Source of the DNA: Patescibacteria group bacterium
Lineage (GTDB): Bacteria; Patescibacteriota; Microgenomatia; UBA12405; JAHJSD01
DNA: 40,440 nucleotides
Assembly (NCBI GenBank): GCA_018830585.1
Contig: JAHJSD010000024.1
Span: 1 to 40,440 of the forward strand
Direction: 5' to 3'
Shown here: in pieces, positions 12,920-34,119 of the stretch
Layout of the letters: each line of letters starts with the position of its first letter
Position numbering within the stretch: the first letter of the stretch is position 1
Notes under the pieces: generated by a model
The model's input: only the letters and a program-made list of their open reading frames with translations
Databases searched by the model: none
Told to the model about the DNA's origin: nothing
Translations under genes and position numbers: made by a program

Positions 12920-12942
12920 TGTTTAGATTTTAGAATATTGTC

Positions 12943-14323: not shown

Positions 14324-14470
14324 TGTAATTTCCTTAGTAAAAAACGGAGCAAAGAGTGGAGCTGCTTAAAAGTTTAAAATTTATGATTTTGGATTTGTTT
14401 AGGAATTAACCCGTCTAATCGTTTTGAATTTTTCCCGACCTCGTCGAGGACAGATAACTTTGAACTATTT

Positions 14471-14935
14471 CGTCATTCTGAGCATAGCGAAGAATCCCCT
14501 AATCCTCTAGCAAATAGCTTTTCTAAAGGGGACCTGCCTGCCCTCCTACCGGCGGGTAAACCGGCAGGCAGGCCTGTCCGCCGAGGTGAATCCTTCGTCA
14601 TCAGAATTCCCCCGTACCAGACGGTACAGGGCTCCGCTCAGGATGACAGGTAAGGAGCAGTGTTGGGTTTAATTCGATCCTGGATCGAAAATCTTAAAAA
14701 TGATCCAGTATCGTGACCACCGTCACCTGAACCGCTCATTTCAACGATCGTGTCAATGAGAGGTCTGTTTTAAAATTTAGAAATTGGAATTTATCCCAAG
14801 AAAGCAAAAGCCCGGACGTTGCGCGGGAACCCTATCATGTCCTCAGCACTGACCTGCTCGCCTCGCTGAGCGGTCGAGGCGGGCTGGCAGGCAGGTTTTA
14901 GCGAAGGAGGATCCCGAAGGGATCCCTTCGGGATT
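14471..14935. repeat. Mosaic of Family A, B and F palindromic repeats filling an intergenic region
   Basis: cgtcattctgagcatagcgaagaatcccc (A); cctgcctgcc..ccggcaggcagg at 14533-14573 (B); cgtaccagacggtacagggctccgctcaggatgac; ggatcccgaagggatcccttcgggatt at 14909-14935 (F). Confidence 0.8.
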
Positions 14936-14975
14936 AGGCCTCGGAAGCTTATTTTTTTTCACCATCACCAAACGA

Positions 14976-16640: not shown

Positions 16641-16651
16641 ATGTTTTGGTT

Positions 16652-16706
16652 AAAAGCTGAAATCCCTGCCTGCCGGCAGGCAGGCGCCGACTTGCCCACC
16701 GAAGCC
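16652..16706. repeat. Family B palindrome with conserved flanks
   Basis: aaaagctgaaatccctgcctgccggcaggcaggcgccgacttgcccaccgaagcc. Homologous to 25427-25501, and lies just upstream of a minus-strand start codon in both cases. Confidence 0.8.
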
Positions 16707-16768
16707 TTGGCAAAGGTGGGAGCTTTCGCGAAGGCGGGCGTGTCCACCATAGCTTTAGCGAAGGCGGA

Positions 16769-17695
16769 TTAGAGGCCATAAATTACTAAAACCAAAAGTA
16801 ATCCCCAACTGACAACAACCGACAAAAGAGGAATATCCGAAGCCAATAAAATTTCCGGTCTTTCCCCTCTTTGTTTCTCAAAAACAAGTTGAGAGTAACG
16901 CATAATTCCGAAAATCACGGGGAAAACAGTAATCATCAGCCACTTCCTGCCGATAAGATAAGGCATATTTTTGACTAAGAAATTAACTCCTCCCGGATGG
17001 GTAAACTTAGGCGGCTCTGCCAAATAGGCGAAAAGAGAATAAGAAATTAATGTCGCCACTGAAAAAACAGAGCTGTAAAAGTTCAAAAGATTTTCAGTGT
17101 AACCGCTGAGGCTGGGCCGGGTCTTCTTACCGGTAGAAACAAGCTCGCTTAATCTTTTCCCGCTGGCGATAAAAAGCGACAAAAAAACCACGGTGAACAT
17201 CAGCCAAATAGGCAAATGATAGCCGGTAGCCATTTCCCCGCCTAAGGTGCGCAGGATAAAAGAAAAAGAAATCGAGAGTATATCTAAAATGACTATCTTC
17301 TTAAGGTAAAAAGAGTAAGACAGATGAAGAATTAAAAAGGCCACCATCAAAATGAAAAAGCCAAAGCTGAGCGAGGAAGCCAAAATAAAGCTTAGAACAA
17401 TCAAAAAGAAAGCTGTCGCCGCCGCGGTTCTTTGGGAAAGATCCCCCCGAGCAATAGGGCGGTGTTTTTTCCGGGGATGAAGCCGGTCATAAGGAATGTC
17501 AACGATGTCGTTGACCAAATAAGAAGCGGAAGAGAGCAAGCAGAAAATAATAAAGGCTAAAACCGTCTTTGATAAAAGATCCCGGTCCAATAATTTGCCG
17601 TTAAAAAGGATCGCCGCAAAAACAGAAAGGTTTTTGAGCCACTGAAAAGGCCTAAGCGACTGAAGCAATGGTCCGAACTTTTTAAAAATGGACAC
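16769..17695 (-). CDS. UbiA-family prenyltransferase, decaprenyl-phosphate phosphoribosyltransferase-like
   Basis: 308 aa, about 8 TM helices. First Asp-rich motif NDIVDIPYDRLHPRKKHRPIARG. The subfamily assignment is inferred from the motif's resemblance only. Confidence 0.82.
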   Translation of the reverse strand: MSIFKKFGPLLQSLRPFQWLKNLSVFAAILFNGKLLDRDLLSKTVLAFIIFCLLSSASYLVNDIVDIPYDRLHPRKKHRPIARGDLSQRTAAATAFFLIVLSFILASSLSFGFFILMVAFLILHLSYSFYLKKIVILDILSISFSFILRTLGGEMATGYHLPIWLMFTVVFLSLFIASGKRLSELVSTGKKTRPSLSGYTENLLNFYSSVFSVATLISYSLFAYLAEPPKFTHPGGVNFLVKNMPYLIGRKWLMITVFPVIFGIMRYSQLVFEKQRGERPEILLASDIPLLSVVVSWGLLLVLVIYGL

Positions 17696-17829
17696 AGCAG
17701 TTTTATTTTAACCAATCTCAAAAAACTAAACAAGACGGGTTTGTCTTTGGCAACATGATTCACTCTGCAAAGAAGGGCCTGGATGCTGGAAAAAAGAGAC
17801 GCTCCGCCAAGTCTGACTTGGCTTCGATA

Positions 17830-17906
17830 GATTCTTCGCTACGCTCCGTACCGCCACAGTGTGTACCCTGGTGGTTTCCCGTCTGGTACAGGACTACGCT
17901 CAGAAT
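17830..17906. repeat. Family A repeat half with a nested insertion
   Basis: gattcttcgctacgctc [ccgtaccgcc...gtctggtacagg] actacgctcagaat. The nested piece is related to 14606-14648. Confidence 0.65.
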
Positions 17907-18015
17907 TGTAAATGTTACATGTTTCGGTAACAAATTTTTAAAGAACAAAAAGTCCTGTTATGCCAATAAACAGACAGTACAATCTTCCAAGAGCGTACTA
18001 CTTCCCGAGGTGTCA

Positions 18016-18127
18016 TATAGTGCCCGCAAAACAAAAACGGATGTTTAAAGTTTAAACATTTTGGGCACAAGTTGAACTTACAAACAAGACATCACAAATT
18101 ACCGAAATTTGTTTTGCGGTTGCTATA
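18016..18127. mobile_element. IS630-derived MITE (about 112 bp)
   Basis: Terminal inverted repeats tatagtgcccgcaaaacaaa / tttgttttgcggttgctata match the ends of the IS at 18387-19519. Central palindrome atgtttaaagtttaaacat. TA at both ends. Confidence 0.78.
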
Positions 18128-18386
18128 TCTACCAATACCGGGGGTGTACCAACAGTATCTGTAAAGAAAATACTGAAACATTTTGAAAGGTATGGTAATT
18201 ACAAGCAGTTGGCAGTCCATCACATTTGGGAGGATTTATGGTAGAAACGAAGGAACGAGCATCTTCCTTGGTTAAAAAAGCTGACAAGGGTTTAATATTA
18301 TAATTATACGGGGTTATCGCACATAAAACGGAAGATAAAAAAAGACAAGACTTAAGATAAGGTCACTGTTTTGGAAATTACTGAGC

Positions 18387-19519
18387 TATAGCGCCCGCAA
18401 AACAAATTTACCACATTTAGTTGTATAACGGATATGTGTTAAAACCTGTCCAGATAACACAAGAGGAAAAAGAATTATTGGTAGATTGGTATCGCAGTGG
18501 AGTAAGCGCTTTAACGAGAAGTAGAGCCCATGCTGTCTTAATGAATAATCAAGGGCTCAACGCGTGTAAAATAGCCAGATTGCTTCTTAGAAATTACAAG
18601 ACAGTCAGAACTTGGCTGTCTTTATTCGGGAAAGGCAGAATAAGCAGCCTTTTTCCAAGATACAGCGGTAATAATAACGCTGGAAAATTAACTCTGAGTC
18701 AGAAAGAAGAAATCAGGAAGGTGTTATCTCAACCACCTTCAAAATATGGAATCCCAAAAAAGTTCTGGCAGGTCAAGGATTTAAAAAAATGGATTAAAGC
18801 AGGGTTCGGAGTAATTTATGAATCAGACAGAAGCTATCACTTTCTTTTTAAGCTGGGCAGGTTCAGTTGGAAGTTGCCTGACAAGTTTGATATTAAGCGT
18901 GATGACCAGTTTGTAAAAAGAAGAATTAAAGAGATTAGAAAAGAGATAAAACCTTTTTTAATTTCACCAGACTGGGTCGTTCTTACCGGCGATGAAACAA
19001 GACTTGTTTGGGAGAATGAATCAAGAAGAGCCTGGTTGAAAACTAATCAAAAGACAATTCTAAAAGTAAATCGGAGCAGAGATTACCAATCATTTTTAGG
19101 AAGCTTAAACCTAAAAACAAAGAAATGCCATCTTCATTCCTTGTCCTGGCATCCTGGCAAAACCAAGGAGAAACGATAAAAGCTCTAAAGAGGATTAAGA
19201 AATACTATCCAAACAAAAACATCTGTCTTATCTGGGATAACGCTGGATGGCATAAAGGCAAACTAATCAGAAAAGAACTAGGAAGAAGTGGGGATTTAAC
19301 TAATTTTCACTTAATCAACTTTCCTCCTTATGCTCCAGATACCAATCCTCAAGAGCATATTTGGAAATATATTAAAAACAGAATTGCTCACCAGCCAACC
19401 ACCAGTTTTAAGCAAAAAGTCAACAATTTTAAACTATCAGTAATTCACAGAAAATTTAACTATCAAATCTGATGAAATCAACTTGTTAAAAACAGGGAAT
19501 TTGATTTGCGGTTGCTATA
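18387..19519 (+). mobile_element. IS630/Tc1-mariner family insertion sequence (1133 bp)
   Basis: Imperfect terminal inverted repeats tatagcgcccgcaaaacaaattt (left) and ttgatttgcggttgctata (right), flanked by TA. Encodes a single DDE transposase reading frame. Confidence 0.88.
18421..19472 (+). pseudogene. IS630-family DDE transposase, frameshifted by an 8-bp tandem duplication
   Basis: Two overlapping ORFs (18421-19179 and 19125-19472). tcctggca is duplicated at 19144-19151 and 19152-19159; removing one copy gives one 347-codon ORF. Catalytic-type motifs LTGDETRL, IWDNAGWH and APDTNPQEHIW. N-terminal HTH-like region. Confidence 0.85.
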
Positions 19520-19568
19520 GAGCCTCTTCCTCCTTCTACCCCCCCCTTTTTTTTACCAGTGCCATCTT

Positions 19569-19614
19569 ACCTCTACAATTAATTCGTACTGATGAGTCCA
19601 AAAGGGCGAAAGGT
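19569..19614 (+). ncRNA. Candidate minimal type III hammerhead ribozyme
   Basis: ACCU-C(17) / stem I UAC[AAUUAAUUC]GUA / CUGAUGA / stem II GUCC[AAAA]GGGC / GAA / AGGU. All invariant core positions are present (C3-A9, G10.1-C11.1, G12-A14, A15.1-U16.1, C17). Stems are only 3-4 bp. Confidence 0.45.
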
Positions 19615-19736
19615 TTCTAAATTCTTATAAACTAAAACCCGGCCAAAATTAAACTTTCCTCCATTCTTCCATAAAATGTAAACTCCCTTACCCCCTCCCT
19701 AATTGTCCGAGTAGTGACCAACCAGGGGAGCCAAAG

Positions 19737-19776
19737 CCCTGCCTGCCGGCAAGCCCACCCGCAGTGGGTAAACGGG
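19737..19776. repeat. Family B-related repeat
   Basis: ccctgcctgccggcaagcccacccgcagtgggtaaacggg; includes the cgcagtgggtaaac module also seen as ctgcgggtaaac at 10507-10518. Confidence 0.6.
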
Positions 19777-19792
19777 CTAAAAAAGAATGGGT

Positions 19793-21079
19793 TTACCTCG
19801 CTGAAATCTGATGAAGACGAAATAGTTGTTTAGAAAGTCTTATCGAATAATTAATCCCACGATCCCAGGGAAAAATATGGTTCGGAGTGGCCCAATAGAT
19901 TTTGTCCGGAATTAGTTCCAAAGACGGTTTTATGGCAGAATAGCCGGTGGGGATAATCGGTTGAGCGCAAAGATCAGAGAAAACATTAACACCGATCAAA
20001 AACTTTTCAAAATCCGCATTTATCTTTTTAAGACCGGGGGAGAAACTTTTTAGAACCTGCCCGGCGCTTTGTTTAAAAATCGGGTCTTCTTGGGAGTAAT
20101 AACCGCCGACATAAACTAAATTTTCCCCGCCGTAGTTGCCGGCATCAACTAAATTGGTTTGCTCTACTATGACAATAAAAGGAAAGCCTGTGTCTAAAAT
20201 GTTAAGCCAGTAGGTCCCTTGAGGTAAAAATGGCTTTTTCATTCTTAAAATCAGGTTTAACGCTCCAATCATTTTTAGTTTACCGAACTTTTTCAGCGCC
20301 GGTTCGGGAAGAATATCTTTAACTATTTTTAAAGCTTTTGGCAAAGGCAAAGTCAAAAAGATTTTGTCGACCAATGCCGAACGACGCTTTGACTTAATCA
20401 GCCAGCTGTTTCCGGCCGGCCCTATCTTTAAAACCGGATCGTCAAGAAAAAGTCGGTTATTCTTTCCTATCTGCTTGGCAATCAGGTCAAACATCTGTTT
20501 ATTTCCCCCGTTTAAATAACCCAACTGCTGACTTCTCACCTTGATCCTCGACCAAAGCCAGGAAAAAGAAACCTCTTTGGAAAACCGATCAAACTTTCCT
20601 TCCATTAATCGTCCCCAAATTTCCTGCCAACCATTATTACCAATAAGTTTTGGAAAAATATCTGAAGCCCGGTAATTTTCAAAAAAACCAAAATAAGGCA
20701 ACTGGCGCAAAAGAAAAAGTACCGTACCCATCCTCAGCTTGTCAAAAACCGTTAAGTTCGGGAATCTTAAAAAGTCAAAAAGATTGTCAAAAGGGGAAAT
20801 CCGGCCATGGCTATAAACAGAAGTTTTTGTTTCCCGGTAAACTAATTTGTCAATCAATCCCAATTCCGTCAACAACTCTTTAACCAAATCATCAGAAGTA
20901 AAAAAATGGTGGAAAAAGCCTTCCAGGGGCCAGCGCCACGTTTTCTCCCTCAGGCTTCTTGACAATCCCCCTAATTCTTTTTCCGCCTCAAAAAGGCAAA
21001 TTTCATCTTTACCCTTTTTGGAAATTTCCCTGGCCAAAAATAATCCGGTAATACCTCCGCCGACAATGCCTAATTTCAT
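19793..21079 (-). CDS. FAD/NAD(P)-binding oxidoreductase (amine-oxidase / protoporphyrinogen-oxidase-like fold)
   Basis: N-terminal dinucleotide-binding motif KLGIVGGGITGLFLA...LFEAEKELGG. 428 aa. Substrate unknown. Confidence 0.75.
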   Translation of the reverse strand: MKLGIVGGGITGLFLAREISKKGKDEICLFEAEKELGGLSRSLREKTWRWPLEGFFHHFFTSDDLVKELLTELGLIDKLVYRETKTSVYSHGRISPFDNLFDFLRFPNLTVFDKLRMGTVLFLLRQLPYFGFFENYRASDIFPKLIGNNGWQEIWGRLMEGKFDRFSKEVSFSWLWSRIKVRSQQLGYLNGGNKQMFDLIAKQIGKNNRLFLDDPVLKIGPAGNSWLIKSKRRSALVDKIFLTLPLPKALKIVKDILPEPALKKFGKLKMIGALNLILRMKKPFLPQGTYWLNILDTGFPFIVIVEQTNLVDAGNYGGENLVYVGGYYSQEDPIFKQSAGQVLKSFSPGLKKINADFEKFLIGVNVFSDLCAQPIIPTGYSAIKPSLELIPDKIYWATPNHIFPWDRGINYSIRLSKQLFRLHQISAR

Positions 21080-21101: not shown

Positions 21102-21941
21102 TTAAAAAAGGAAAAGGAGTCCTCCCAAGGCAACTATCGAACCGAGGATAATCAGGAACTGGGAGGGGAAGAAAACTCCTGCCGGGGGCAGTTCTATCCT
21201 GGTCGGGGTCGCCGTCGGAGTGTAAACAATAGTCGGCGTGTTGGTGGATACCGGAGTACCGGTTGGGGTATTAGTCGGAGTTGAGGTTGGTACCGGAGTT
21301 CCGGTTGGAGTGTTGGTCGGGGTATTGGTAGGCACCGGAGTACCCGTTGGTGTGTTAGTCGGAGTAGGGGTGGCGGTTGGTGTTGATGTTGGTACCGGAG
21401 TACCGGTAGGCGTATTGATTGGCGTGTTAGTTGGTTTTAGGGTGTTGGTAGGAGTGTTAGTGGGCGTATTAGTCAGAGTAATGGTCGGTCTTGGAGTACT
21501 AGTCGGGGTCGGGGTAGGAATAGTAGTCGGAGTCGGGCTGTTAGTTGGAGTTGGAGTAGGACAAAGACAATCTTGCCGATCGGAACATTCAGAGTTGGCG
21601 CAACGGCCATTAATACAGTCTAGGGAGGAAGGACACTCTTCTTCACGCTCGCAACGATCCCAGCATTCCGGAATTTGAGTCGGGGTTGGAGTCGGCTTGT
21701 AAACGTTAAATCGAAGAACACAGGGCTGTTCTTCCTGCGCGGATGATTCCGACGGAGCGGTAGGAGCTATCGGTTCTTCCCGCAGTTGATAAAGCTTAAC
21801 CGCGCTGATAATCGCGATTGCCGCCAGTAATGCGGTCGAAAAAAGTACCGCAAACAAACCAGCGCGGGAAATTTTCTTTTTCTTGCCGGTAACACCTTGC
21901 TCCGGCAAAAATTCGTCTCTTGGTTTTTCAATCAAGTCCAT
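21102..21941 (-). CDS. Surface protein: N-terminal TM, Cys-rich module, long Pro/Thr repeat, LPPAG plus C-terminal TM
   Basis: 279 aa. [23 protein letters not shown]. 10 Cys within about 60 residues. About 120 residues of (T/N)PT repeats. C-terminus ...[31 protein letters not shown]. Confidence 0.75.
21209..21563. repeat. Coding tandem repeat specifying the PT linker
   Basis: A reiterated unit of about 48 nt encoding [16 protein letters not shown]-like units, at least 4 times. The antisense ORF 21238-21678 is its shadow. Confidence 0.8.
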
Positions 21942-21944
21942 TTT

Positions 21945-23144
21945 TTATCTCCAGCCTAATTTGGGGCTAAAAACCTGCGCTTCTACTGTCTGTTCCCCTT
22001 CCCTTTCTATTTGGTATTCGATCTGAAACTCTTCGCCTCTGCGATCGGTAGTCTCCTGCCATTCACCCCGGTTAACTTTAAACCTGGCTTTGGTCAATCC
22101 GTCAGGATCATCCGTCTCACCCAAAACAGTAAAGTGAACTCTGTCGCCCAGTTTCAAAGAGATATCGTCGGTGATCTCGTTCCAGTCGTAGTCATACATT
22201 TTAACCTTCAAACATCGGCAGGAATAAATCGGCATTGGGGTCGGAGTGTTAGTTGGAGTACTGGTGGGGGTGTTAGTTGGAGTATTAGTAGGAGCGTTGG
22301 TTGGAGTCGGTCCTTCCATGGTTACCGTAGCAACATCTTTACAGGCGGATTCGGACCAATAACCACCCCCCGGTTTTTTGGTTTTCCCCTCAATGGTATA
22401 AACACCAGGCGACTGCGGGGAATAATTACAAACATATCCGCCGCTACAGGGGACTCTAATTTCTTTTGAAAGGCCGCCCGGGCCAGAGATAAAAAAGTCA
22501 ACGTCTTCGCTTAAAACACCGCTATGATTATGAAAACCGGCTATATTAAAACTGCTCCCCTGAGTGATGGTTTTGACATCGCCCCAAGGATCAGAGCTGT
22601 TTTTCTGAACCTGAGCCTGGGTGCTGGTAAAAGGGCAGCCCGACTGAGGTGTCGGAGTAGTTCCGGAAGGCACCGTCGGCGTAGGCGGCTGCTCCGAGGG
22701 AAAGTACCAGATCTTGTTGTTGCAGCGGCTGCAGACAACACCGTCAACCGTCTTACCTGACAAAATATCGCTCCTTATTTGGGTGCAATTATTAACCAAG
22801 CAATCATGGTTGATATTCGACTCCTTGGCGATAACGTCAAAATCACCGTCATTGTCGCTGTCGCTGCAAAACTGGATGTAAATTTTACCCCTGTTGGTCA
22901 TTGCTAAATTTTTTCCGGGACCGTCGCTGGCCCAGATACAGTTCTCGTCACAAACATCCCCAGGGTGAACCACCCGGCAGCAACAGGAAGATCCTGCCGG
23001 GACTAAACCCTCACAACCGTTAGGAACTCCACCCGCAGCGCTATTGCGAATATCCTGCTCCCTTTTAAGCAGAAAAAGGCCTCCGGCTATTGCTATCATA
23101 GCCAGAAGAAGTAAAGAGAAGATTAATAATTTTTTGTTAGCCAT
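21945..23144 (-). CDS. Secreted or anchored Cys-rich multi-domain protein with a PT linker
   Basis: 399 aa. N-terminal signal-anchor LLIFSLLLLAMIAIAGGLFLL. Cys-rich N-module, middle beta-rich module, [23 protein letters not shown] linker, about 100-aa C-terminal domain. Start lies 3 nt upstream of the next gene's start... i.e. its stop is 3 nt from the start of 21102-21941. Confidence 0.75.
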   Translation of the reverse strand: MANKKLLIFSLLLLAMIAIAGGLFLLKREQDIRNSAAGGVPNGCEGLVPAGSSCCCRVVHPGDVCDENCIWASDGPGKNLAMTNRGKIYIQFCSDSDNDGDFDVIAKESNINHDCLVNNCTQIRSDILSGKTVDGVVCSRCNNKIWYFPSEQPPTPTVPSGTTPTPQSGCPFTSTQAQVQKNSSDPWGDVKTITQGSSFNIAGFHNHSGVLSEDVDFFISGPGGLSKEIRVPCSGGYVCNYSPQSPGVYTIEGKTKKPGGGYWSESACKDVATVTMEGPTPTNAPTNTPTNTPTSTPTNTPTPMPIYSCRCLKVKMYDYDWNEITDDISLKLGDRVHFTVLGETDDPDGLTKARFKVNRGEWQETTDRRGEEFQIEYQIEREGEQTVEAQVFSPKLGWR

Positions 23145-23219
23145 TAGTTAAAGCTTATCTTAAAAAAAATTTACCAGTTTAAGAGCAAAACCGCCAGAAG
23201 CGGAATGTTACTTAGCCTA

Positions 23220-24923
23220 CTAAATTAACTGAGCCAAGACTGTTAAAAATAAAACCGCGCCGCCGACAATCACAAATAGAGTTGGCCCAAAGAACCCCGT
23301 TTCAGGAACACCGGACTCCGTTGAGGGCAAAGTTACTTCAGCAGTCGGCGTTGCCGTCGGTGTCAATGTCGGTGATAGAGTCGAAGATAGGGTCGGAGAT
23401 ATCTCCACCGCCGGAGTCGGCTCCAAGGTCGGCGTTGCCGTCGGTTCCGGTGTTGGAGTCGGAACGGGAGTGTCGGTCGGCAATAATGTCGGAGTAACCG
23501 TCCCGCCTGAAGGAGTGGCGGAAAAAGAAGGATTATCGTCAGTCATTTCTGCCGCCAGAATAAAAGTTCTGATAAATGTTTCTTCCGCGCCGGAAAGCGG
23601 ATCAATATGGGTTACCGTCAACTTATGCTCGCCGGGGTCAAGATTGTCGGGGGGCGACCAACGCCAATCCCCGCTCTCATCGATCGTCAGCTCAGCCTGG
23701 TAGAGAGCCTCGGACTCCAAGGTGATTTTAACAATACCGCCGCTCGGCCCGGTCCCAAAAATTTCAGGCCGGAAGAAGTGTAACATCTCGCCATCCTCAG
23801 GATTAATGATTTCAAAAGGTCTGTTTCCGGTAAAACCGACTATCTCGCCTAAGCGGGAAGCTCCCGCCGAAGCGGCCGTCTGCTTAATGGAATCGGAAGG
23901 CCCGGCAAAACTCTCTTGAGTGAAATCATAATCATTTCCTAAAATGATCTCCGGCACAGGGTCGTCGTCTTTGGCATAAACCAAGGCCGTAGCCGTTCCG
24001 CCGAGAACACCCTGAACAAAAATTTCTTCCACCGAAAAATCATCCTGCTGATCAGCTAAGCGGGTTAAATCCTCAGAAAAAGCTTTGGCCAGAGAAACCG
24101 CCCAATTACCCTGGTTTGTTACCAAAGAGGACAAGGGAGCAAAATTTTCCGCTTTAAGGTAAACGATTGCCCCCTCGGCAATTTCACCATCAAAATTTTT
24201 AACTACTCCGGAAGCCAAATTAGCAATCGGCAACTCTCCAAAAAAAGCCGAGGCCGTCTTGACCTTATAAGGCTGGCCTGCCGACTCGCCAAACTGGACT
24301 CCGCCGGAAAGAATCATAAACCGGTATTCTTTTCCGCTTTCCAACCCCTCAACAATGATATAATGGGTAGTAAACCTATCTTTCCCACTAATCTCAGTTC
24401 TGAAATCGCTAAAAAGCCTTTGGTACTTATCGTCCAAAACTTGCACCAGGCCGGTGGTCTCCCGGGAAGTAAACCAAGAAGCGGTAAAGGAATTATCGGT
24501 GACATTGGTAGTTCTAACCTCAGACGGAGCAACAGCTTCCTGCGCTCTGAACCAAAATACTCTTCTCCCCCCGATAAAAAACAAAACAACCACTAGGCTC
24601 AAAACCAAAAAAAGGCCCACCAAGGTAGGGATTCTTCTTTCCCGTTTCAGTTTTGAGAAAAACCCGGGGGAGTCGTCACTACCGCCTTCCTGTTGCTTAA
24701 GAAGCCCGGAAACCGGAACTGCGCCACCGCCACTTCTGTCTTGAAGAGATTCAGTAGAAAGCGTATTTTTATTGACTCCCAAACCGGTTTCAGAAACCGT
24801 CTCCTTTAAACCGGAAAGCGGCAGATATTCCTCGCCGCCCTGAAATAAAGACTCCGGTTTCGCCTCAGAAGTTTCATTCTTTTTCCTGCGATAAAATTTC
24901 TTTTTGATTTTCATATTTGCCAA
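23220..24923 (-). CDS. Large surface protein: cytoplasmic N-tail, TM, FN3-like and Ig-like modules, PT-rich stalk, VPETG plus C-terminal TM
   Basis: 567 aa. TM IPTLVGLFLVLSLVVVLFFIG. FN3-like TTNVTDNSFTASWFTS...GKEYRF. Ig-like GEHKLTVTHIDP. C-terminus ...LPSTESGVPETGFFGPTLFVIVGGAVLFLTVLAQLI. Confidence 0.8.
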   Translation of the reverse strand: MANMKIKKKFYRRKKNETSEAKPESLFQGGEEYLPLSGLKETVSETGLGVNKNTLSTESLQDRSGGGAVPVSGLLKQQEGGSDDSPGFFSKLKRERRIPTLVGLFLVLSLVVVLFFIGGRRVFWFRAQEAVAPSEVRTTNVTDNSFTASWFTSRETTGLVQVLDDKYQRLFSDFRTEISGKDRFTTHYIIVEGLESGKEYRFMILSGGVQFGESAGQPYKVKTASAFFGELPIANLASGVVKNFDGEIAEGAIVYLKAENFAPLSSLVTNQGNWAVSLAKAFSEDLTRLADQQDDFSVEEIFVQGVLGGTATALVYAKDDDPVPEIILGNDYDFTQESFAGPSDSIKQTAASAGASRLGEIVGFTGNRPFEIINPEDGEMLHFFRPEIFGTGPSGGIVKITLESEALYQAELTIDESGDWRWSPPDNLDPGEHKLTVTHIDPLSGAEETFIRTFILAAEMTDDNPSFSATPSGGTVTPTLLPTDTPVPTPTPEPTATPTLEPTPAVEISPTLSSTLSPTLTPTATPTAEVTLPSTESGVPETGFFGPTLFVIVGGAVLFLTVLAQLI

Positions 24924-25008
24924 AAACAGGCCAGCGTGGCCACCACCCCATTTTATACTTTACGGCTCTTTTATCTTTATAAAACAAATACAATAAAAGA
25001 GGGATGTT

Positions 25009-25350
25009 TTAAGGGTTCAGTTCCAGGCTAGACCCTGAATCAGTCGCTACCTCACTCTCCCCGGTAATAGTTTGGGCGGGAGCCGGGGTAACGGTTGACT
25101 CGACCGAAGTTGGTTCCGGCAGTAAATAGCTCTCGACTTCTTCTGGCCGGTATTCCCGCTTCTCCTCGATACTCTCCAGGACTGTCAGATCTAATTTCGG
25201 ATCAATCGGAGTAATTAACTGGTCTACTTTTTTAATTTCTTCCCTTTTGGTAAGTTCGCGGTAACTTTCCAAAGCAATCCAGAAAAGAACCGTAAACAAG
25301 GTCATTGCGGCAACAAAGATTATTCTCTTATATTTTCTTTTTTGTTTCAT
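25009..25350 (-). CDS. Small bitopic membrane protein (basic N-terminus, one TM, acidic/Thr-rich tail)
   Basis: 113 aa. MKQKRKYKR followed by IIFVAAMTLFTVLFWIAL. No recognisable motif. Confidence 0.55.
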   Translation of the reverse strand: MKQKRKYKRIIFVAAMTLFTVLFWIALESYRELTKREEIKKVDQLITPIDPKLDLTVLESIEEKREYRPEEVESYLLPEPTSVESTVTPAPAQTITGESEVATDSGSSLELNP

Positions 25351-25426
25351 CGGCTAACTCCAATTGAAGCTCCGAGGGTTATTAACCATCGGATTCTTAC
25401 TTCATATTGTAAACATTGCCATAATC

Positions 25427-25610
25427 AAAAGCTGAAATCCCTGTCTGCTCGCCTCGCGGCGAAGCGGACCGACAGGCAGGCGCCAACTTGTCAACCGAAG
25501 CTTCAGCGAAGGCTGAAGCGAAAATTACCCTTACCCCCGAATCACTATCCAACCGAGACTTAATCCACCAGCTGGCGGACCTCGGATCCCAAAGGGATCC
25601 CTTCAGGATT
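25427..25610. repeat. Family B and Family F repeat mosaic splitting the operon
   Basis: 25427-25501 is homologous to 16652-16706 with a nested insertion at the palindrome centre. cggatcccaaagggatcccttcaggatt at 25583-25610 matches 14909-14935. Confidence 0.8.
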
Positions 25611-25636
25611 TTCGCGAAGGCGGATAAAAACCCGGT

Positions 25637-26320
25637 TTACCAACCGGACTGCCAATAATTCAGCTCGCCTGCTAAAGTTAAGTTTAAAACCCGCTCTTCT
25701 TCTTTCTTATCTTTCTTATCTTTAGAAATCTGGTACTGGTTAATTGCTATCCATCTTCTTACCCTCGTTAATTGATCGATAAAACTTCTTATATCAAAAT
25801 AGTCACCTTTGCCGCTAAAGTTAAAGGCTAAAGTTTTTAGATTTTGATCCTTCTGAACAGCTTTAGCTTTTTTATTTTTCTCTTCCGAACCGGACAGGTT
25901 AACTCTGGAAAAACCCAAGCCTCTTAATGACAAACTGCTCTCCTGGGCACTGCCTACCAGTTGAGAAATACCCTGGGCAATACCAAGGTCATCAGGAAGA
26001 AAACTGTCAACTAAGCTTACTCTCGTCTGTGCGACAGAATAAATCTGCTGCGCTTCAATCAAGTCATTTATCTTTTTCTGCATCTTGACACTGATCTCTT
26101 CTTTTTCCCTGATCTTGCCAACCAGTCCGGAAACGGTCACCGCTGCCGGTTTGACGGCAAAAAATGAAAAAAAGGCAACAATGAACAAGGTCAAGGCTAC
26201 CTCGGTATACTGCCAAGCTTCTTTTTTCTCCCGGTATTTTCTAATTATCTTATCCAGTTCTTTCCTGACTTTTTTCCGGTAAGCAGCAATAGCGCTGGCC
26301 TCTCCAATTTTTCTAAGCAT
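25637..26320 (-). CDS. PilO-like bitopic membrane protein (putative)
   Basis: 227 aa. Basic cytoplasmic N-terminus, one TM (VALTLFIVAFFSFFAV), coiled-coil segment, then an alpha/beta C-domain. ATG overlaps the upstream gene's stop (ATGCTTAG). Assignment based on architecture and context only. Confidence 0.5.
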   Translation of the reverse strand: MLRKIGEASAIAAYRKKVRKELDKIIRKYREKKEAWQYTEVALTLFIVAFFSFFAVKPAAVTVSGLVGKIREKEEISVKMQKKINDLIEAQQIYSVAQTRVSLVDSFLPDDLGIAQGISQLVGSAQESSLSLRGLGFSRVNLSGSEEKNKKAKAVQKDQNLKTLAFNFSGKGDYFDIRSFIDQLTRVRRWIAINQYQISKDKKDKKEEERVLNLTLAGELNYWQSGW

Positions 26321-26873
26321 CGTCTCCCTCCTTGAAACTGATTAAAAACTGTACTTTCATGCCGGCAATACCCTGCTCTCTCTCAACAGTGCCAATTCTG
26401 ACTTTATTGATAGTTTCTTTTGCAAGGAGTCTATCTACAAAAGCGGCCAAACTGGACTCCGAAGAAATGGTTGTCGATAAAGAAACTTCCTGTCCCTCTA
26501 TGTTTTCACTAAAACTATAGTTTGAAACTAAAATATCCGGCGGCAGGCTTTCAACTATCAAGTCAAGGGGAGATAGAGGCTGAATATCCTTTTTCAAAAA
26601 GCGGTCAACTGAGGACAATCTTGATTGAAAAAGACGGAACTCCTCTTCAAAATCGTTGATACTGGAAATTATCGCCTGACGCTGTCTGATTTCTTCGGAA
26701 AGGTCCGAATCTTTTCTATCAAGCCAAAACCGGGACAAAAAAGCTCCGATAACAATCAGCTCGGTGAAAACTACAATATACCTGCCTGTCGATAAAATCC
26801 AATTAACTAACTTTCCCAAAATCGTTCCCTGGAGTGCCGTTCTCGGTAGTAAAGAAACATCCCTCTCTGTCAT
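26313..26873 (-). CDS. PilN-like bitopic membrane protein (putative)
   Basis: 186 aa. N-terminal VSLLPR resembles the conserved PilN INLLP motif. One TM (YIVVFTELIVIGAFL), a coiled coil, then a C-domain. Confidence 0.55.
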   Translation of the reverse strand: MTERDVSLLPRTALQGTILGKLVNWILSTGRYIVVFTELIVIGAFLSRFWLDRKDSDLSEEIRQRQAIISSINDFEEEFRLFQSRLSSVDRFLKKDIQPLSPLDLIVESLPPDILVSNYSFSENIEGQEVSLSTTISSESSLAAFVDRLLAKETINKVRIGTVEREQGIAGMKVQFLISFKEGDDA

Positions 26874-27003
26874 TTTATTCAGTATATTAAAGTTAGAATG
26901 TTATGTAAACCCCCTGTTTGAAAGAGGAAGACTGTTGGTTCTTTAACGATAGAAATGGAGCCGAAATATTATGGAGCCCCACAGGTACCTCGTCCTTCCG
27001 TAG

Positions 27004-27086
27004 CCCTGCCTGCCGGTTTACCTGTCTGCCGACAGGCAGGCCCGCCGAAATGGAGGGCAGGCAGGTTTTCTTGGTTCATGTATAAG
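27004..27086. repeat. Family B palindrome cluster fused to Family C copy 4
   Basis: ccctgcctgccggtttacctgtctgccgacaggcaggcccgccgaaatggagggcaggcagg followed directly by ttttcttggttcatgtataag. Confidence 0.8.
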
Positions 27087-27278
27087 TTGATCACTCATTT
27101 ACGTCGATCAATGTAAATAAGTGACTCACTACAGGAAGCCGCGTCAACGCCAGTCCGGCCGAGGTAACCGGAACTATCCGGATAAGAGCCTTCCGGCCGG
27201 ATGTGTCTAAAATTGGTTGCGCCGAATCGAAAAAAACGGGCAAGGCAAAAATAATTGCCAAAGCGGGTTAATCGGATT

Positions 27279-28934
27279 TTATTCCGGATTCGGAGGCAAC
27301 TCCACTAATGGAGGGGCCGATTTCGGCCAGACAAAAAGGCTGTTCATTAATTTAAGCATCTTTCCCGCCTCTTTTATTTTTAAAAATAAAGAAAGGAGAA
27401 AGTAAGATAAAGAGCCCCCAAAAATACTCAGTCCAAAAAGAACCGCCAAACCGACTATCCTGCTGGTATCTAAAAAGCGCTGGTCAAGGCCTTTTAACAA
27501 AAACCAGGCAACCGCGCCGGAAAGGATACCGGCAAAAAGCATTTTAAAAAGGGGCAGAAATAAATCATTAATCAATCCCTCTATCTTTATCCGTCCGATC
27601 ATTATTAACATCAAAATAGACATCTGGGAAAAGCCGGCTACGGTGATCGCCAAGGCCAAGCCGGAAGTGCCGAAACCAAGAATAAAAGTGGTATACAAAG
27701 CAATTCCTGTGTTAACTACTAAAGAAAAAAGAGAAACAAAAAGCGGGGTTTTGGTGTCCTGAAGAGCGTAAAAACCCCGGATTAAGATATCGTTTATAGT
27801 ATTAAAAACTACTAAAGGGGCGAAAAAGGCCACCACTCTCCCTGTTGCCACCGTCGCTTTCCAGGGAAACTTCTCCGCTCCATAGGCAATTCTGACAATC
27901 GGCACTCTTAGAACTAAAAGCAGCGCTGCCGCAGGAAAAGCAAAATAAGCCGCCTGGAGCAAAGAAGAGAGGAGTGTTTGCCTAAACAAATCAAAACGCT
28001 TTGCTCCGACTTCCTTGGAAAGAACAGGCAGAGAAGCCTGACCAATGGTAGTACCGAAAATCCTCGAGGAAAAATGTGTCAGTCTCTGGGCCAGATAGAA
28101 TAAAGATAAAGATCCGGCAGGCAAGGAAGTGGCCAGAAAAAGGGCTACCGTTTCGCCTATCTCTCCTAACCCCAAAGCCAAGGTGCGGGGCAGCATCAAC
28201 CTAAGAATTTTTCTGACTCCGGGCAAATTAAAAGAAAGCAAAAAAGAATATTTAAAACCCAGCGCGCTCGATAGGGGCAATTGAACTAAAAGATGCAACG
28301 CCGCTCCGATAACTACACCCAAGGCCGGACCGAAAATTCCCAGCTTAGGCGATAAAAACAAAATCCCGAAAATAATTCCTAAATTATAGACAATTGGAGA
28401 GAGAGCTGGTATTAAAAAACGCTGGAAGCTTTGAAGGATCCCTGTCAAAAAGTTGCTCATTAAAAAAAACAGCTGAGACAGAACCATTAGTTTGGTCAGC
28501 TGACTCATCAAAAAAACCTGATAATTGCTAAAACCGGAGGTAATCAGATCGGAAAGGGGATAGGAAAAAACCACCAACAAAATGGAAAGGCCGAAAAAAA
28601 TCAAAAAAAGGGCGGTAATTACCGCCGAAGCGGTCTGATAGGCTCTGGTTTTGCTTTTTACTAACTGCTCACTGAAAACAGGGATAAATGCGGCCGATAG
28701 CGCCCCGGTGACCAAAAGCCTGAAAATTATGTCCGGTAAACGGAAAGCGGCGTTATAAGCGTCAAGCTGGTCAGCGCAGCAGGAATAGAACCTGGCATAA
28801 AGCAGGCGGTCTCTGAGGATGCCTAATAACGCCGAGGCGCCAAAAGCGGAGGCCAAAATAAGGGCGGCCGAAAAAATACTCGTTTGCCGCCGAGAAAAAA
28901 GTTTGGAACCGTTACCTACCAGCGCTTTAATCAT
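27279..28934 (-). CDS. murJ: Lipid II flippase MurJ (MviN family)
   Basis: 551 aa, about 14 TM helices. N-terminal SRRQTSIFSAALILASAFGASALLGILRDRLLYARF and overall MviN/MurJ-like pattern. Confidence 0.88.
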   Translation of the reverse strand: MIKALVGNGSKLFSRRQTSIFSAALILASAFGASALLGILRDRLLYARFYSCCADQLDAYNAAFRLPDIIFRLLVTGALSAAFIPVFSEQLVKSKTRAYQTASAVITALFLIFFGLSILLVVFSYPLSDLITSGFSNYQVFLMSQLTKLMVLSQLFFLMSNFLTGILQSFQRFLIPALSPIVYNLGIIFGILFLSPKLGIFGPALGVVIGAALHLLVQLPLSSALGFKYSFLLSFNLPGVRKILRLMLPRTLALGLGEIGETVALFLATSLPAGSLSLFYLAQRLTHFSSRIFGTTIGQASLPVLSKEVGAKRFDLFRQTLLSSLLQAAYFAFPAAALLLVLRVPIVRIAYGAEKFPWKATVATGRVVAFFAPLVVFNTINDILIRGFYALQDTKTPLFVSLFSLVVNTGIALYTTFILGFGTSGLALAITVAGFSQMSILMLIMIGRIKIEGLINDLFLPLFKMLFAGILSGAVAWFLLKGLDQRFLDTSRIVGLAVLFGLSIFGGSLSYFLLSLFLKIKEAGKMLKLMNSLFVWPKSAPPLVELPPNPE

Positions 28935-29016
28935 TTAAAAAACATTTCAAGTATAACAACTCCTTGCCAGCCCAACAACTAAATGCTAAAATCTGATGAA
29001 GTTTCTGACGAAATTC

Positions 29017-29139
29017 AATCAACTGGTTTCAAAACCCTTTACGCCATTGCGAGGAGTGTTAATGACGCGGCAATCTATCTTTAAAAACAAGATCGCCACA
29101 CTCGCTTCACTCGTTCGCGATCACTTTTGAAACAGGTTC
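29017..29139. mobile_element. Family D hairpin MITE, copy 1
   Basis: About 123 nt, nearly identical to 34383-34505. Termini ctggtttcaaaa / ttttgaaacagg. Internal arms gtcattgcgag..gcggcaatc / gatcgccac..tcgcgat(c/g)ac form a long imperfect palindrome. Confidence 0.8.
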
Positions 29140-29183
29140 TATCTTTAATTTTTCACTTTTAATTTTTAATTTAAATAGCTACT

Positions 29184-29535: not shown

Positions 29536-30954
29536 GTGAACAAAAAAACTTTCTATATCACCACACCAATCTATTATGTTAACGATGTACCCCACATCGG
29601 TCACACTTCTACCACCATTTTTGCCGATATTATTGCCCGATATCATAAGGAATTAGGAAAAGAGGTTTTTTTTCTTACCGGCACCGACGAGCACGGAGCC
29701 AAAATCGCTCAGGCCGCCGAAAAAGCCGGTCTTTCGCCAAAGGAGTTCTGCGATTCAATTGCGCCCCGGTTTGAGAAAATTTGGAAAAGGCTAAATATCA
29801 GCAACGAATTCTTTATCAGAACCACCAACCCAAAGCACAAAAAAGTAGTTCAAGAACTGATTAATAAAATTTATCAAAAAGGAGATATTTATAAAAGCGT
29901 CTACCAAGGCCTTTACTGTATTGGTTGCGAAAAATTTTTGACCGAATCCGACTTGGAAAACGGTCATTGTCCGCTGCATCCTCCGGAGCAAACCGTTGAG
30001 CAGAAAGAAGAAAACTGGTTTTTTAAATTATCAAAATATATTCCTCAACTAATTAAGCTTATTGAAGATGACGATACCAATTACATTTTTCCTGAAGGCA
30101 AAAGACAAGAAGTATTATCAAAACTAAAAGCGGGTGTTCATGATATTTCTTTCTCCCGGGCTAATGTTAAATGGGGAATCCCTATTCTGTGGGATAAAAC
30201 TCAAACAATCTATGTTTGGGTGGACGCGCTGATTAACTATTATAGCGCCACTGTCTTTCTGCCCGGGAAAGAGAAATTCTGGCCGGCAAACATCCATCTT
30301 TTGGCTAAAGAGATTCTCTGGTTCCACACCGTTATCTGGCAGGCAATGTTAATGGCCGCCGGCTTGCCTTTACCCCATAAAACCTTTACTCACAGCTTTT
30401 ATATTATGGATGACAAGAAAATGTCCAAGTCTTTGGGGAATTTAATCAAACCGGAGGAAATGATTAAGCTATTTGGTATCGATGCCAGCCGTTACTTAGT
30501 GGCCAGTTCCCTGCCGTTAGAAAACGACACCAATGTCAGTATCGATCGGTTCAAACAAAAATATAACGCCGATTTGGCCAACGGATTAGGAAACCTGGTT
30601 TCCAGAACCGCCAAGCTATCCCAAAAAAACAATTTCAAGTTGAAAGGCGAATTTAAACCAAAGTTCATTAAAAAAGCCGCCGAAGCGCTCAATGCGCTTA
30701 ACCCGCCAAAAGCGCTGGAGGTGATCTGGAACGAATCCGAAAGTGGAGTCAGCGCCACCAACAAGCTTTTCAATGACAAAAAAATCTGGGAGCTTAAAGG
30801 AGAAAAATTAGAAAATGCTTTAGAAAAAGTAGTCGCCAACCTGCTCACCATTGCCTACAACCTTAAACCCTTTATGCCGAAAACCAGTAAAAAAATAGAG
30901 GCTACTTTCCTAAAAGGAGAAAAACTTGCTAAACCCTTGTTTCCAAGAATCTGA
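29536..30954 (+). CDS. metG: Methionyl-tRNA synthetase (short form)
   Basis: YITTPIYYVNDVPHIGH (HIGH), CxxC..CPLH zinc knuckle, KMSKS. The ORF opens at GTG 29479 overlapping rpsT. GTG 29536 (or TTG 29530) gives a more usual N-terminus; start uncertain. Confidence 0.93.
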   Translation: MNKKTFYITTPIYYVNDVPHIGHTSTTIFADIIARYHKELGKEVFFLTGTDEHGAKIAQAAEKAGLSPKEFCDSIAPRFEKIWKRLNISNEFFIRTTNPKHKKVVQELINKIYQKGDIYKSVYQGLYCIGCEKFLTESDLENGHCPLHPPEQTVEQKEENWFFKLSKYIPQLIKLIEDDDTNYIFPEGKRQEVLSKLKAGVHDISFSRANVKWGIPILWDKTQTIYVWVDALINYYSATVFLPGKEKFWPANIHLLAKEILWFHTVIWQAMLMAAGLPLPHKTFTHSFYIMDDKKMSKSLGNLIKPEEMIKLFGIDASRYLVASSLPLENDTNVSIDRFKQKYNADLANGLGNLVSRTAKLSQKNNFKLKGEFKPKFIKKAAEALNALNPPKALEVIWNESESGVSATNKLFNDKKIWELKGEKLENALEKVVANLLTIAYNLKPFMPKTSKKIEATFLKGEKLAKPLFPRI

Positions 30955-31147
30955 TCTTGACCAGTCTCCGGCCCTCCATTGATAGCGTGATAGAGCCAAT
31001 TTGGATAAGCTAAACGAGCATGTCTCGGCACTAATTAATGATAGTTTAATCAGGATTAGGCCGTCAATTAGGGATTTTGTATGTACGTCCCTGTTTATGT
31101 TTACTATTTAAGGCATCCGATGAGCTAAAATCTGGTAAAATATTCTT

Positions 31148-32226: not shown

Positions 32227-32602
32227 AATCCGAAAACGGAGTCGCCGCTACTAATAAACTTTTCAATGATAAGAAAATCTGGGAGCTGAAAGGAGAAAAT
32301 ACGAGTTTCGCACTTGCGCACTATAACTGTCATTACTAAGGAGCGCCAGCGACCGCGGCAATCTCGGTTCATTTGCCGCCAGATCGCCACGCTCTCCCGA
32401 TCGAATCGGGATCGCTCGCGATGACAGAAAGTGCGAAACTTATGGAGAAATTAGAAAATGCTTTAGAAAAAGTGGTTGGCAATCTGCTCACCATCGCCCA
32501 CAACCTAAAGCCGTTCATGCCGGAAACCAGTAGAAAAATAGAGGCTACTTTCCTAAAAGGAGAAAAACTCGCTAAGCCCTTGTTTCCAAGAATTTGATCT
32601 TG
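32227..32602 (+). pseudogene. Degenerate second copy of the metG 3' end, interrupted by a MITE
   Basis: Aligns with 30734-30959 (the last 73 or so codons of metG plus stop and 5 nt) with scattered substitutions. Split by the insertion at 32300-32443. Confidence 0.82.
32300..32443. mobile_element. Family D-related hairpin MITE inside the metG remnant
   Basis: 12-bp perfect terminal inverted repeats agtttcgcactt / aagtgcgaaact. ggagaaa is duplicated at both junctions (32292-32298 and 32444-32450). Internal gtcatt..gcggcaatc / gatcgccac..cgcgatgac arms resemble Family D. Confidence 0.75.
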
Positions 32603-33893: not shown

Positions 33894-34077
33894 AGACAGC
33901 CTCCGGCAGATTTAGCAGTGAGCTTATTGAATTGTTTAAGATTAAAGGCCCGTCGAAAATTTTTCCTGACTCTCCCCAGCCCTTTCGACGATAATTCGCT
34001 CGATTCTTCTCGATGTTACTCGAAGAATAAAGTCGGAGTCAACACTCCTTTCGGGATTGTCAAATTGCTGATTCCAC

Positions 34078-34119
34078 GGGGATTCTTCACCCGACGTAAC
34101 GTCGGGATCAGAATGACGG
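34078..34119. repeat. Family A repeat half
   Basis: ggggattcttcacccgacgtaacgtcgggatcagaatgacgg. Confidence 0.65.

Follow-up and report, generated by a model that had tools for sequence, protein, structure and literature searches.

A PilN/PilO-type gene pair within a conserved four-gene envelope cassette of Microgenomates bacteria

Why should genes resembling pilN and pilO of type IV pilus systems lead a row of surface-protein genes with no pilus gene beside them? The locus that raises this question lies on the 44.9-kb contig JAHJSD010000024.1 (assembly GCA_018830585.1) of a Patescibacteria group bacterium placed in the Microgenomatia, of which we analysed positions 1 to 40,440 of the forward strand (40,440 nucleotides, hereafter the window). 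Six co-directional open reading frames (ORFs) on the minus strand, here called g1 to g6, span 21102-26873 (Table 1), and an ORF check of the window found all six at the coordinates given by a first-pass annotation that had worked from the sequence alone. That annotation took g1 and g2 to be an orphan PilN/PilO-like pair and the proteins that follow to be adhesin-like cargo, perhaps of a dedicated surface-display module. Our preferred reading, which we hold at about even odds, is that g1 to g4 make up a Microgenomates type IV pilus alignment subcomplex, encoded off the main pilus locus and equipped with lineage-specific wall-tethering partners.

The g1-g2 pair and its fixed partners

Taken alone, the two window proteins stay below the Pfam cut-offs: g1 (locus tag KKD61_01670) matches PilN (PF05137) at E=4.7e-4 with 20.6 bits, under a cut-off of 22.8, and g2 matches PilO (PF04350) at E=1.1e-3 with 19.5 bits, under a cut-off of 22. 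Their identity is nevertheless settled, because evidence from profiles and fold is available at the level of the family. A profile of 24 g1 homologs had M. xanthus PilN (3jc8, E=6.5e-4) as its sole significant match in the PDB, and a profile of 48 g2 orthologs matched M. xanthus PilO at E=3.3e-10 and P. aeruginosa PilO (2rjz) at E=3e-3, the conserved RR(I/L) strand being included in the alignment with PilO. Precomputed PF05137 assignments exist for many g1 homologs, and distant members of the family match both PF05137 and PF04350 strongly; g2 thus qualifies as PilO at family level, through its ortholog profile and through PF04350 on its relatives. The AlphaFold (AF2) model of g1, with a predicted local distance difference test score (pLDDT) of 75.7, consists of a helix at residues 18-94 and an alpha-beta-beta-alpha-beta-beta domain. 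The best PDB matches that Foldseek returned for this model were the periplasmic domains of EpsL, PulL and XcpY (TM-score 0.77), followed by M. xanthus PilO, T. thermophilus PilN (4bhq) and P. aeruginosa PilO.

The topology of g1 is that of PilN: a short N-terminus with a characteristic motif (MTERDVSLLPR), one transmembrane (TM) helix, a coiled coil and a ferredoxin-like domain, with the TM helix and the juxtamembrane segment forming the most conserved part of the protein. The N-terminal motif, (D/E)(I/V)SLLP, has L9 and P10 invariant in the 24 homologs and reads INLLP, VNLLP or INLYP in more distant members. In canonical systems, the xNLLP-type motif at the N-terminus of PilN docks PilM, as seen in structures of PilM with PilN peptides. 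PilM and PilN interact, PulL corresponds to a PilM-PilN fusion, and proteins of the PilN/PilO fold are known from type IV filament systems only (PMC10191384). By profile and predicted fold, g1 and g2 are genuine members of the PilN/PilO/GspL-M fold family, and the initial assignment of both proteins is borne out by the profile searches and, for g1, by the fold search. An exhaustive search with hidden Markov models retrieved 206 representative clusters of the PilN-like family at E<=1e-30, a number that rises to 877 at E<=1e-10 and to 1602 at E<=1e-3. No PilM-sized fusion occurs among the best 150 representatives, which are mostly about 175-205 aa long and include a few fragments and two longer proteins. 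Likewise, no PilM-sized actin-fold gene lies upstream of g1 at any locus, the position being taken by MurJ or S20 instead.

Is the rest of a pilus machine encoded close by? Among the window ORFs of 100 aa or longer, Pfam matched none to PilM, T2SSE, T2SSF, a prepilin peptidase or a sortase, and six-frame motif scans of the window found neither the Walker A motif of a pilus ATPase nor a prepilin leader. A loose sortase pattern gave only six matches in six frames, all of them in non-coding frames or in unrelated proteins. Both kinds of scan therefore agree with the first-pass annotation, which had seen no PilM, ATPase, platform protein, prepilin or sortase in the window. What the Pfam scans did identify are genes for wall synthesis and glycosylation (MurJ, FemAB, UbiA, four PMT_2-type glycosyltransferases of the GT-C class, GT2, GT4 and DUF2298), as well as a split IS630-type transposase. 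Housekeeping functions are represented by MetRS, ribosomal protein S20, Obg, UvrD and UDG.

The same arrangement recurs in other genomes. A scan of one genome per species (GTDB) detected 220 relatives, and 80 loci were examined with flanks of up to 10 kb; nine further loci came from protein look-ups, which brings the total to 89 related loci. Genes were counted by BLASTP and clustering in 83 non-redundant loci. Both g1 and g2 are present in 81 of the 83, g4 in 78 and g3, between g2 and g4, in 74, and every locus lacking g3 or g4 by BLAST is on a contig that ends there. The conserved unit, as gene content defines it, is the four genes g1 to g4 (the cassette), complete at every related locus with enough sequence. 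These genes are tightly packed: median spacings are -4, -14 and -4 nt for g1-g2, g2-g3 and g3-g4, more than 96% of the spacings are 30 nt or less, and g2-g3 spacing in 57 relatives has a median of -14 nt and a maximum of 56 nt. In the window, the stop of g1 and the start of g2 share 8 nt at 26313-26320 (ATGCTTAG; GAT GAT GCT TAG of g1 over ATG CTT AGA of g2), an overlap that had been noted before and that the sequence confirms. Judging from this spacing, the four genes behave as an operon and appear to be translationally coupled.

The order of PilN-like, PilO-like, small and g4-type protein is kept even at 27-34% identity and with different flanks. Three of the distant loci (L085, L086 and L088) have S20, LytR_cpsA_psr and FemAB nearby, and a fourth (L087) has SmpB and thioredoxin nearby, with MurJ missing from its neighbourhood. 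A one-off adjacency in this genome is ruled out, as the order recurs in about 80 species. ORFs within 10 kb at these loci were free of the pilus-ATPase Walker A motif, the prepilin leader and the sortase TLxTC motif at every locus. The pair is thus never beside pilus genes in the 89 related loci, and its linkage to envelope proteins is stable across relatives, which upholds both halves of the original observation that a PilN/PilO-type pair is set apart from pilus machinery and joined to envelope proteins. No description of this cassette was found in the literature that we searched; the novelty lies in the setting of these PilN/PilO homologs, a hitherto undescribed operon that is conserved widely and includes new partners.

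The fixed partners are g3 and g4. An alignment of 41 g3 orthologs shows a basic N-terminus, a TM helix, the motif P(I/L)xPxLDxxxLxxIExR and a disordered tail; g3 matches no Pfam or NCBIfam family and has no lipobox. The larger g4 consists of an N-terminal extension of about 90 aa, a TM helix with the signature IPT-LG, FN3, CarboxypepD_reg-like and Big_13 domains, a Pro/Thr (PT) linker (PT-rich at residues 470-508), the sequence PSTESGVPETG and a C-terminal helix. Domain matches among 47 g4 orthologs are to Big_13 (45/47), fn3 (29/47), Pur_ac_phosph_N (23/47) and CarboxypepD_reg (17/47). The AlphaFold (AF2) model of g4 (pLDDT 78) has three beta-sandwich domains, a disordered PT linker and the C-terminal helix, and Foldseek matched it to generic tandem FN3/Ig adhesins only. 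Orthologs of g4 are 405-470 aa long and start with a conserved hydrophobic segment, K-x-IPT-(I/L)LG, and this N-terminal TM segment (IPT-LG) is the most conserved part of the protein. The high conservation of the TM segments of both g4 and g1 suggests that the two proteins make contacts inside the membrane. The extension of window g4 (24651-24923, residues 1 to about 91), which is rich in Gly, Ser, Glu and Lys and lies ahead of the conserved TM helix, is common only to the closest relatives (L005, P0122 and partly P0123); the other orthologs start 3-15 residues before the helix. A role for g4 as a secretin or PilP analogue was rejected on grounds of homology, there being no matches, and none of the 47 g4 orthologs matches a secretin. 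We also rejected g3 to g6 as minor pilins, since they have no class III leader.

Variable surface proteins and the surrounding region

The genes after g4 are of a different kind. g5 combines an N-terminal TM helix or signal peptide with a Cys-rich module (17 Cys), two PT linkers (PT-rich at 147-168 and 273-309), a filamin-like Ig domain (Pfam Filamin, E=3.6e-4) and a C-terminal domain of about 95 aa that ends in GW(R/K), with no C-terminal anchor. Its orthologs occur in 18 loci, and the Cys-rich region is variable among them. The C-terminal domain (residues ~305-399, positions 21948-22230; CxCxxxKxYDxxW...TKARFRIN...VEAQVxxPxLGW[RK]) matches none of the families in Pfam or the PDB; an Ig-like fold is suggested by its weak similarity to Y_Y_Y and Filamin. 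g6 has an N-terminal TM helix, a Cys-rich module (9 Cys), a PT tract of 125 aa (123-248), an LPPAG motif and a C-terminal helix. All three large proteins had been described as Cys-rich with PT linkers, which suits g5 and g6 but not g4, which has no cysteine at all. Similarly, of the surface genes proposed as partners of the pair, g3 and g4 are conserved, whereas the Cys/PT-rich types represented by g5 and g6 are variable and missing from about one sixth of the loci.

Two of the proteins, g4 with VPETG and g6 with LPPAG, end in a sorting-signal-like motif followed by a hydrophobic helix and lack a basic tail, just as the first-pass annotation stated. Each also has an N-terminal hydrophobic segment, and variants of both tails are conserved across orthologs. 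The C-terminus of g4 (...ESGVPETGFFGPTLFVIVGGAVLFLTVLAQLI) closes with VLAQLI and that of g6 with LLFLF. Tails of the g6 type follow a strongly conserved consensus, PTRIxLPx(A/S)GxxFPxQxLxxxGxIxxLxGxLILL, and all end in LL or similar residues, with no basic tail. Those of g4 orthologs read PSTxSG(V/I)Px(T/S)G plus helix, and many end in KK, RR or KKDEK, which window g4 does not. Matches to the LPXTG_anchor model TIGR01167 are weak: among the g6 tails there are 8 in 20, the best at 0.012, and among the g4 orthologs 5 in 47, the best at 0.019. The window proteins themselves match neither TIGR01167 nor PF00746 at E<=1. Signals of the exosortase or archaeosortase type were rejected, only sortase-type models (chiefly LPXTG) having matched. 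When the profile of the g6 tail was searched against a set of 5.8 billion proteins, it returned 14 short fragments only. Among 1506 locus ORFs, (L/V/I)Px(T/S/A)G with a C-terminal helix was found in 40 g4 proteins, in 44 proteins encoded directly after g4 and in 1 elsewhere. There are 64 loci with enough sequence past g4; 41 have at least one tail-bearing protein there, 12 have other proteins and 11 have none. The g5/g6-type proteins, variable surface proteins of the sortase type that are probably O-glycosylated, are therefore common but optional, and they are probably unnecessary for the core function of the cassette.

Much of the wider neighbourhood is conserved as well. MurJ is next to g1 in 74 of the 83 loci (co-directional in 55, divergent in 19), S20 is present in 67 and MetRS in 51, and the cassette is followed by UbiA in 44 and by PMT_2 in 42. 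MurJ and S20 stay beside the cassette across lineages (L085-L089 and the Shapirobacteria loci) in varying relative orientation, and the cassette may have been added to a MurJ-S20 block of older synteny. The median MurJ-g1 spacer in relatives is 39 nt, and the range is 24-45 nt when the genes are co-directional. Spacers in the window are hundreds of bases long, as against tens in relatives. Since g2 and g3 abut or overlap in relatives, the g2-g3 gap is, by comparison, a lineage-specific insertion, and both repeat-filled spacers are, from their sequence, small repeat-element insertions that lie outside the system. Their palindromes recur at about 14.5, 14.9, 16.6, 19.7 and 34.3 kb. Short GC-rich palindromes of several families, for example CCTGCCTGCCGGCAGGCAGG, ATCCCGAAGGGATCCCTTCGGGAT and GGGGATTCTTCGCTACGCTCAGAATGACG, pack the intergenic regions at 4245-4721, 7726-8177, 14324-14975, 16590-16790, 19700-19790, 25351-25636, 26874-27278 and 33894-34583. 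An Rfam scan of the whole window found one tRNA only and thus no known RNA family in the repeat-filled gaps. Just upstream of g1 there is a sigma-70-like site (26881-26909, minus strand; TTTACA-17-TATACT, 10/12), which is a consensus match only, and terminator and promoter scans of the window gave counts within shuffle expectation.

Table 1. Coordinates of the cassette, its variable downstream genes and flanking features in the window
Feature	Position	Strand	Description
g1	26313-26873	-	186 aa; PilN-like bitopic protein with VSLLP motif, one TM helix, coiled coil and ferredoxin-like domain
g2	25637-26320	-	227 aa; PilO-like bitopic protein
g3	25009-25350	-	113 aa; small bitopic protein
g4	23220-24923	-	567 aa (564 aa in NCBI call); core ectoprotein
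g5	21945-23144	-	399 aa; variable accessory surface protein
g6	21102-21941	-	279 aa; variable accessory surface protein
MurJ lipid II flippase	27279-28934	-	Pfam E=3.2e-72; conserved neighbour, not shown to be part of the cassette
Spacer MurJ-g1	26874-27278		405 nt; palindromes resembling repetitive extragenic palindromes (REP) or miniature inverted-repeat transposable elements (MITE); repeat families D8, D11, I2
Spacer g2-g3	25351-25636		286 nt; palindromic repeats D16, I14, I15, recurring at 14.9, 16.6 and 16.7 kb
Downstream conserved context	14976-21079	-	Pfam
FAD amine-oxidase-like gene	19793-21079		Pfam
UbiA prenyltransferase	16769-17695		Pfam
PMT_2 GT-C glycosyltransferase	14976-16640		Pfam
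IS630-like element	18387-19519	+	helix-turn-helix (HTH) and DDE_3 ORFs (18421-19179, 19125-19472), split by a frameshift; 23-nt inverted ends

Further downstream, the IS630-type element sits between the oxidase and UbiA genes, and it is recognisable as an insertion because these two genes adjoin in relatives. Beside it, 61 nt (18068-18128) are 100% identical to window positions 1-61. On the other side of the cassette, the 3' end of MetRS and the sequence just beyond it (30734-30959) are duplicated about 1.5 kb downstream (32227-32602, 85-90% identity), and the copy seems to be a remnant or to stem from duplication of part of the gene. The cassette is surrounded by an envelope-glycosylation island (8178-21079 and 34584-40366) that holds UbiA, the FAD-oxidase-like gene, four PMT_2 GT-C genes, DUF2298, GT2 and GT4. 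The combination of UbiA, FAD-oxidase and GT-C recalls, by analogy, pathways that provide lipid-linked sugar donors for extracytoplasmic glycosylation. PT linkers are typical substrates of O-glycosylation, and the island enzymes could act on those of g4, g5 and g6; such neighbours, together with the PT tracts, suggest that the surface proteins of the cassette are O-glycosylated.

Readings of the cassette

How could these proteins work together? If the four genes do encode an alignment subcomplex, g1 and g2 would form the usual bitopic PilN/PilO heterodimer, and the cytoplasmic (I/V)(S/N)LLP tip of g1 would dock a PilM encoded at a separate locus along with the ATPases, the platform protein and the pilins. 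As lineage-specific partners, g3 and g4 would be held in the PilN/PilO complex through their conserved TM helices. The rod of g4 has three beta-sandwich domains, a flexible PT linker and a VPxTG anchor. It might then link the machine to the peptidoglycan and the S-layer, or through them, and so replace in function the layers that PilP, PilQ and TsaP form in outer-membrane bacteria.

Such a scheme calls for pilus genes elsewhere in the genome. A MITE-like repeat of about 125 nt is private to the window (29014-29145 and 34380-34511, copies 94% identical), and its 31-nt core served as a probe against JGI metagenome contigs. The probe retrieved 11 contigs (L090-L100), all from one metagenome (Ga0180009), with repeat identities of 93-100%. 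A second repeat family of the window recurs on one of the eleven, the 7.8-kb contig L095, which is likely to come from this genome or from a sibling genome. On L095, eight prepilin genes in a row (30-4421), with GFTLIELLV-type leaders and N_methyl/T2SSG matches, are followed by a gene for a 936-aa protein (4915-7725) with a Peptidase_C39_2 domain; the contig begins inside the pilin cluster, so that anything upstream is cut off. The literature offers parallels: components of type IV pili, PilM among them, are widespread in the Candidate Phyla Radiation (CPR; PMC6744442). A closed Microgenomates genome is reported to encode PilA, minor pilins, PilD, PilB, PilT, PilC and PilM at a single locus, for which neither PilN nor PilO is listed, and to possess a sortase (PMC7143001). 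In model species, dispersed type IV pilus genes are common (PMC10191384). The label of an orphan pair is correct insofar as no pilus genes lie nearby, but it is overstated, given that scattering is common, that the PilM-type motif is kept and that prepilins are encoded on a sibling contig.

Several points weigh against a pilus subcomplex. We know of no sortase-anchored component in any known pilus machine, and neither g3 nor g4 has similarity to PilP, PilQ, PilW or TsaP. The invariable neighbours MurJ, UbiA, GT-C, LytR-CpsA-Psr (LCP) and FemAB fit a role in envelope biogenesis equally well. PilM, ATPase, platform protein, prepilin peptidase and sortase genes were all absent from about 120 kb of sequence, made up of the window and about 80 kb of sibling contigs. 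The tetranucleotide composition of L095 correlates with that of the window at r=0.935, which ranks it 23 of 91, with two other sibling contigs ranking 1 and 2, and its link to the genome consists in the shared repeats and the metagenome. The CPR is enriched in type IV pilus components, among them PilM, PilN and PilO, and in many CPR these are reportedly encoded together with the pilus genes (PMC6744442); in Saccharibacteria pilM, pilN and pilO are inside the pilus loci (PMC12206443). Finally, a second canonical pilNO at the pilus locus, if present, would make the cassette a specialised paralog.

It is possible that the cassette has no part in a pilus. The surface-display or export module envisaged at first would have PilN/PilO and g3 as a scaffold that moves, positions or anchors g4 and the LPxAG-tailed Cys/PT proteins across the wall, either without a pilus or with a short pseudopilus piston, like a single-membrane type II secretion system. 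The near-exclusive association of the tail signal with the cassette within the loci argues for this, as does the presence of at least one downstream tail protein in the majority of informative loci and the absence of pilus genes within 10 kb of any locus. There is also a precedent in C. perfringens, where mutants in pilM, pilN, pilO and other type IV pilus genes secrete less of the matrix protein BsaC (PMC11580942). Yet the supposed cargo is dispensable in cis, because in 11 of the 64 loci g4 is directly followed by the next conserved gene, and in another 12 the proteins encoded there do not carry the signal. The tails, moreover, resemble ordinary sortase signals (through TIGR01167 only, and weakly), and as nearly all Microgenomates have a sortase (PMC6744442), their sorting calls for no new machine. 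Since the conserved PilM-type motif also speaks for coupling to a canonical pilus motor, we consider a dedicated display module improbable, a possible reading rather than the best-supported one. A rather improbable variant is a paralogous trans-wall machine that works independently of pili: PilN/PilO, possibly driven by PilM, would form with g3 and the g4 rod a fixed envelope structure that displays or positions sortase-type glycoprotein adhesins on ultrasmall episymbionts, and a second canonical pilMNO would serve the pilus at its own locus.

Alternatively, the PilN/PilO-like pair could have been recruited as a scaffold for wall growth or polymer attachment, together with MurJ, LCP, sortase and GT-C, with g4 serving as a wall or S-layer spacer protein. 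The adjacency of MurJ in 74 of 83 loci with its short co-directional spacer, UbiA and PMT_2 GT-C genes following in 42-44 loci, LytR_cpsA_psr, FemAB and PMT nearby in distant lineages and the PT linkers on cassette proteins are all consistent with it. However, unrelated housekeeping genes (S20, MetRS) are also conserved in the same neighbourhood, so that synteny is not specific evidence of function here. MurJ is divergent in 19 loci and missing from L087, the PilN/PilO fold is known only from type IV filament systems (PMC10191384), and the PilM-type motif is conserved; we thus hold a role in envelope biogenesis to be quite unlikely. It is very unlikely, in our view, that no functional unit extends past g1 and g2 and that g3 to g6 are ordinary surface proteins beside a dispersed pilN/pilO. 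It is true that the whole region, unrelated genes included, is syntenic across Shapirobacteria, and that g5 and g6 are variable. But g1 to g4 overlap or abut in more than 96% of loci and stay together in lineages with completely different flanks, and the IPT-LG TM segment of g4 and the TM/juxtamembrane segment of g1 are their best-conserved segments, which suggests contacts inside the membrane.

Type IV pili are the best-supported means by which CPR bacteria, or Patescibacteria, attach to hosts and take up DNA. Under the pilus subcomplex reading, g3 and g4 become concrete candidates for the missing wall-spanning part of a secretin-less CPR pilus machine, and the way in which a pilus crosses the CPR envelope becomes a directly testable question, relevant to CPR cell biology and to type IV filaments at large. 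If, on the other hand, the genomes hold a second pilMNO, the cassette would represent the first use of the PilN/PilO fold outside a pilus or secretion machine. In addition, several families of "hypothetical" membrane proteins enriched in Microgenomates are now assigned a context.

Comparison with known systems

Among the closest described arrangements is the pilMNOPQ operon of type IVa pili, as in P. aeruginosa, M. xanthus and N. meningitidis. In sequence profile, topology and fold, g1 and g2 correspond to PilN and PilO; g1 has the N-terminal xNLLP-type motif, and the order of pilN, pilO, a small protein gene and a gene for a large envelope protein is the same, as is the apparent translational coupling. 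The cassette differs in that it has no upstream pilM and in that g3 and g4 are unrelated to PilP and to the PilQ secretin; g4 is instead a Sec-type protein with FN3, prealbumin-like and Ig domains and a sortase-type tail. It also lies amid wall and glycosylation genes, in a bacterium without an outer membrane. GspL/GspM(/GspC) of type II secretion likewise provides paired bitopic coiled-coil proteins with a third bitopic partner, and the fold of g1 is closest to the periplasmic ferredoxin-like domains of EpsL, PulL and XcpY. Unlike GspL, g1 has no fused cytoplasmic PilM-like domain, and its neighbourhood contains neither a secretin gene nor one for GspE or GspF; only diderm bacteria possess type II secretion systems (PMC10191384).

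Monoderm type IV pili, such as those of S. sanguinis, C. perfringens and TM7x (pilM1N1O1/pilM2N2O2), resemble the cassette in having PilN/PilO, a single membrane and no secretin, and the C. perfringens pilus additionally assists the export of a matrix protein (PMC11580942). In these monoderm loci, however, pilM, pilN and pilO sit with pilB, pilC, pilD and the pilins (PMC12206443, PMC11580942), and neither partners like g3 and g4 nor an operon link to sortase-signal proteins has been reported for them. With the LPXTG proteins of Gram-positive bacteria, g4 and g6 have in common an N-terminal hydrophobic leader, extracellular beta-sandwich or Cys-rich modules, a PT spacer, (L/V)PxxG and a hydrophobic helix, along with the weak TIGR01167 matches in relatives. 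They depart from them in their motifs, VPxTG/VPxSG and LPxAG/LPxSG, in the lack of a basic tail on the window proteins and on the g6-type tails in general, and in having no sortase within 10 kb of any cassette locus. The g6 tail is also conserved over about 35 residues, far beyond what a generic sorting signal would display.

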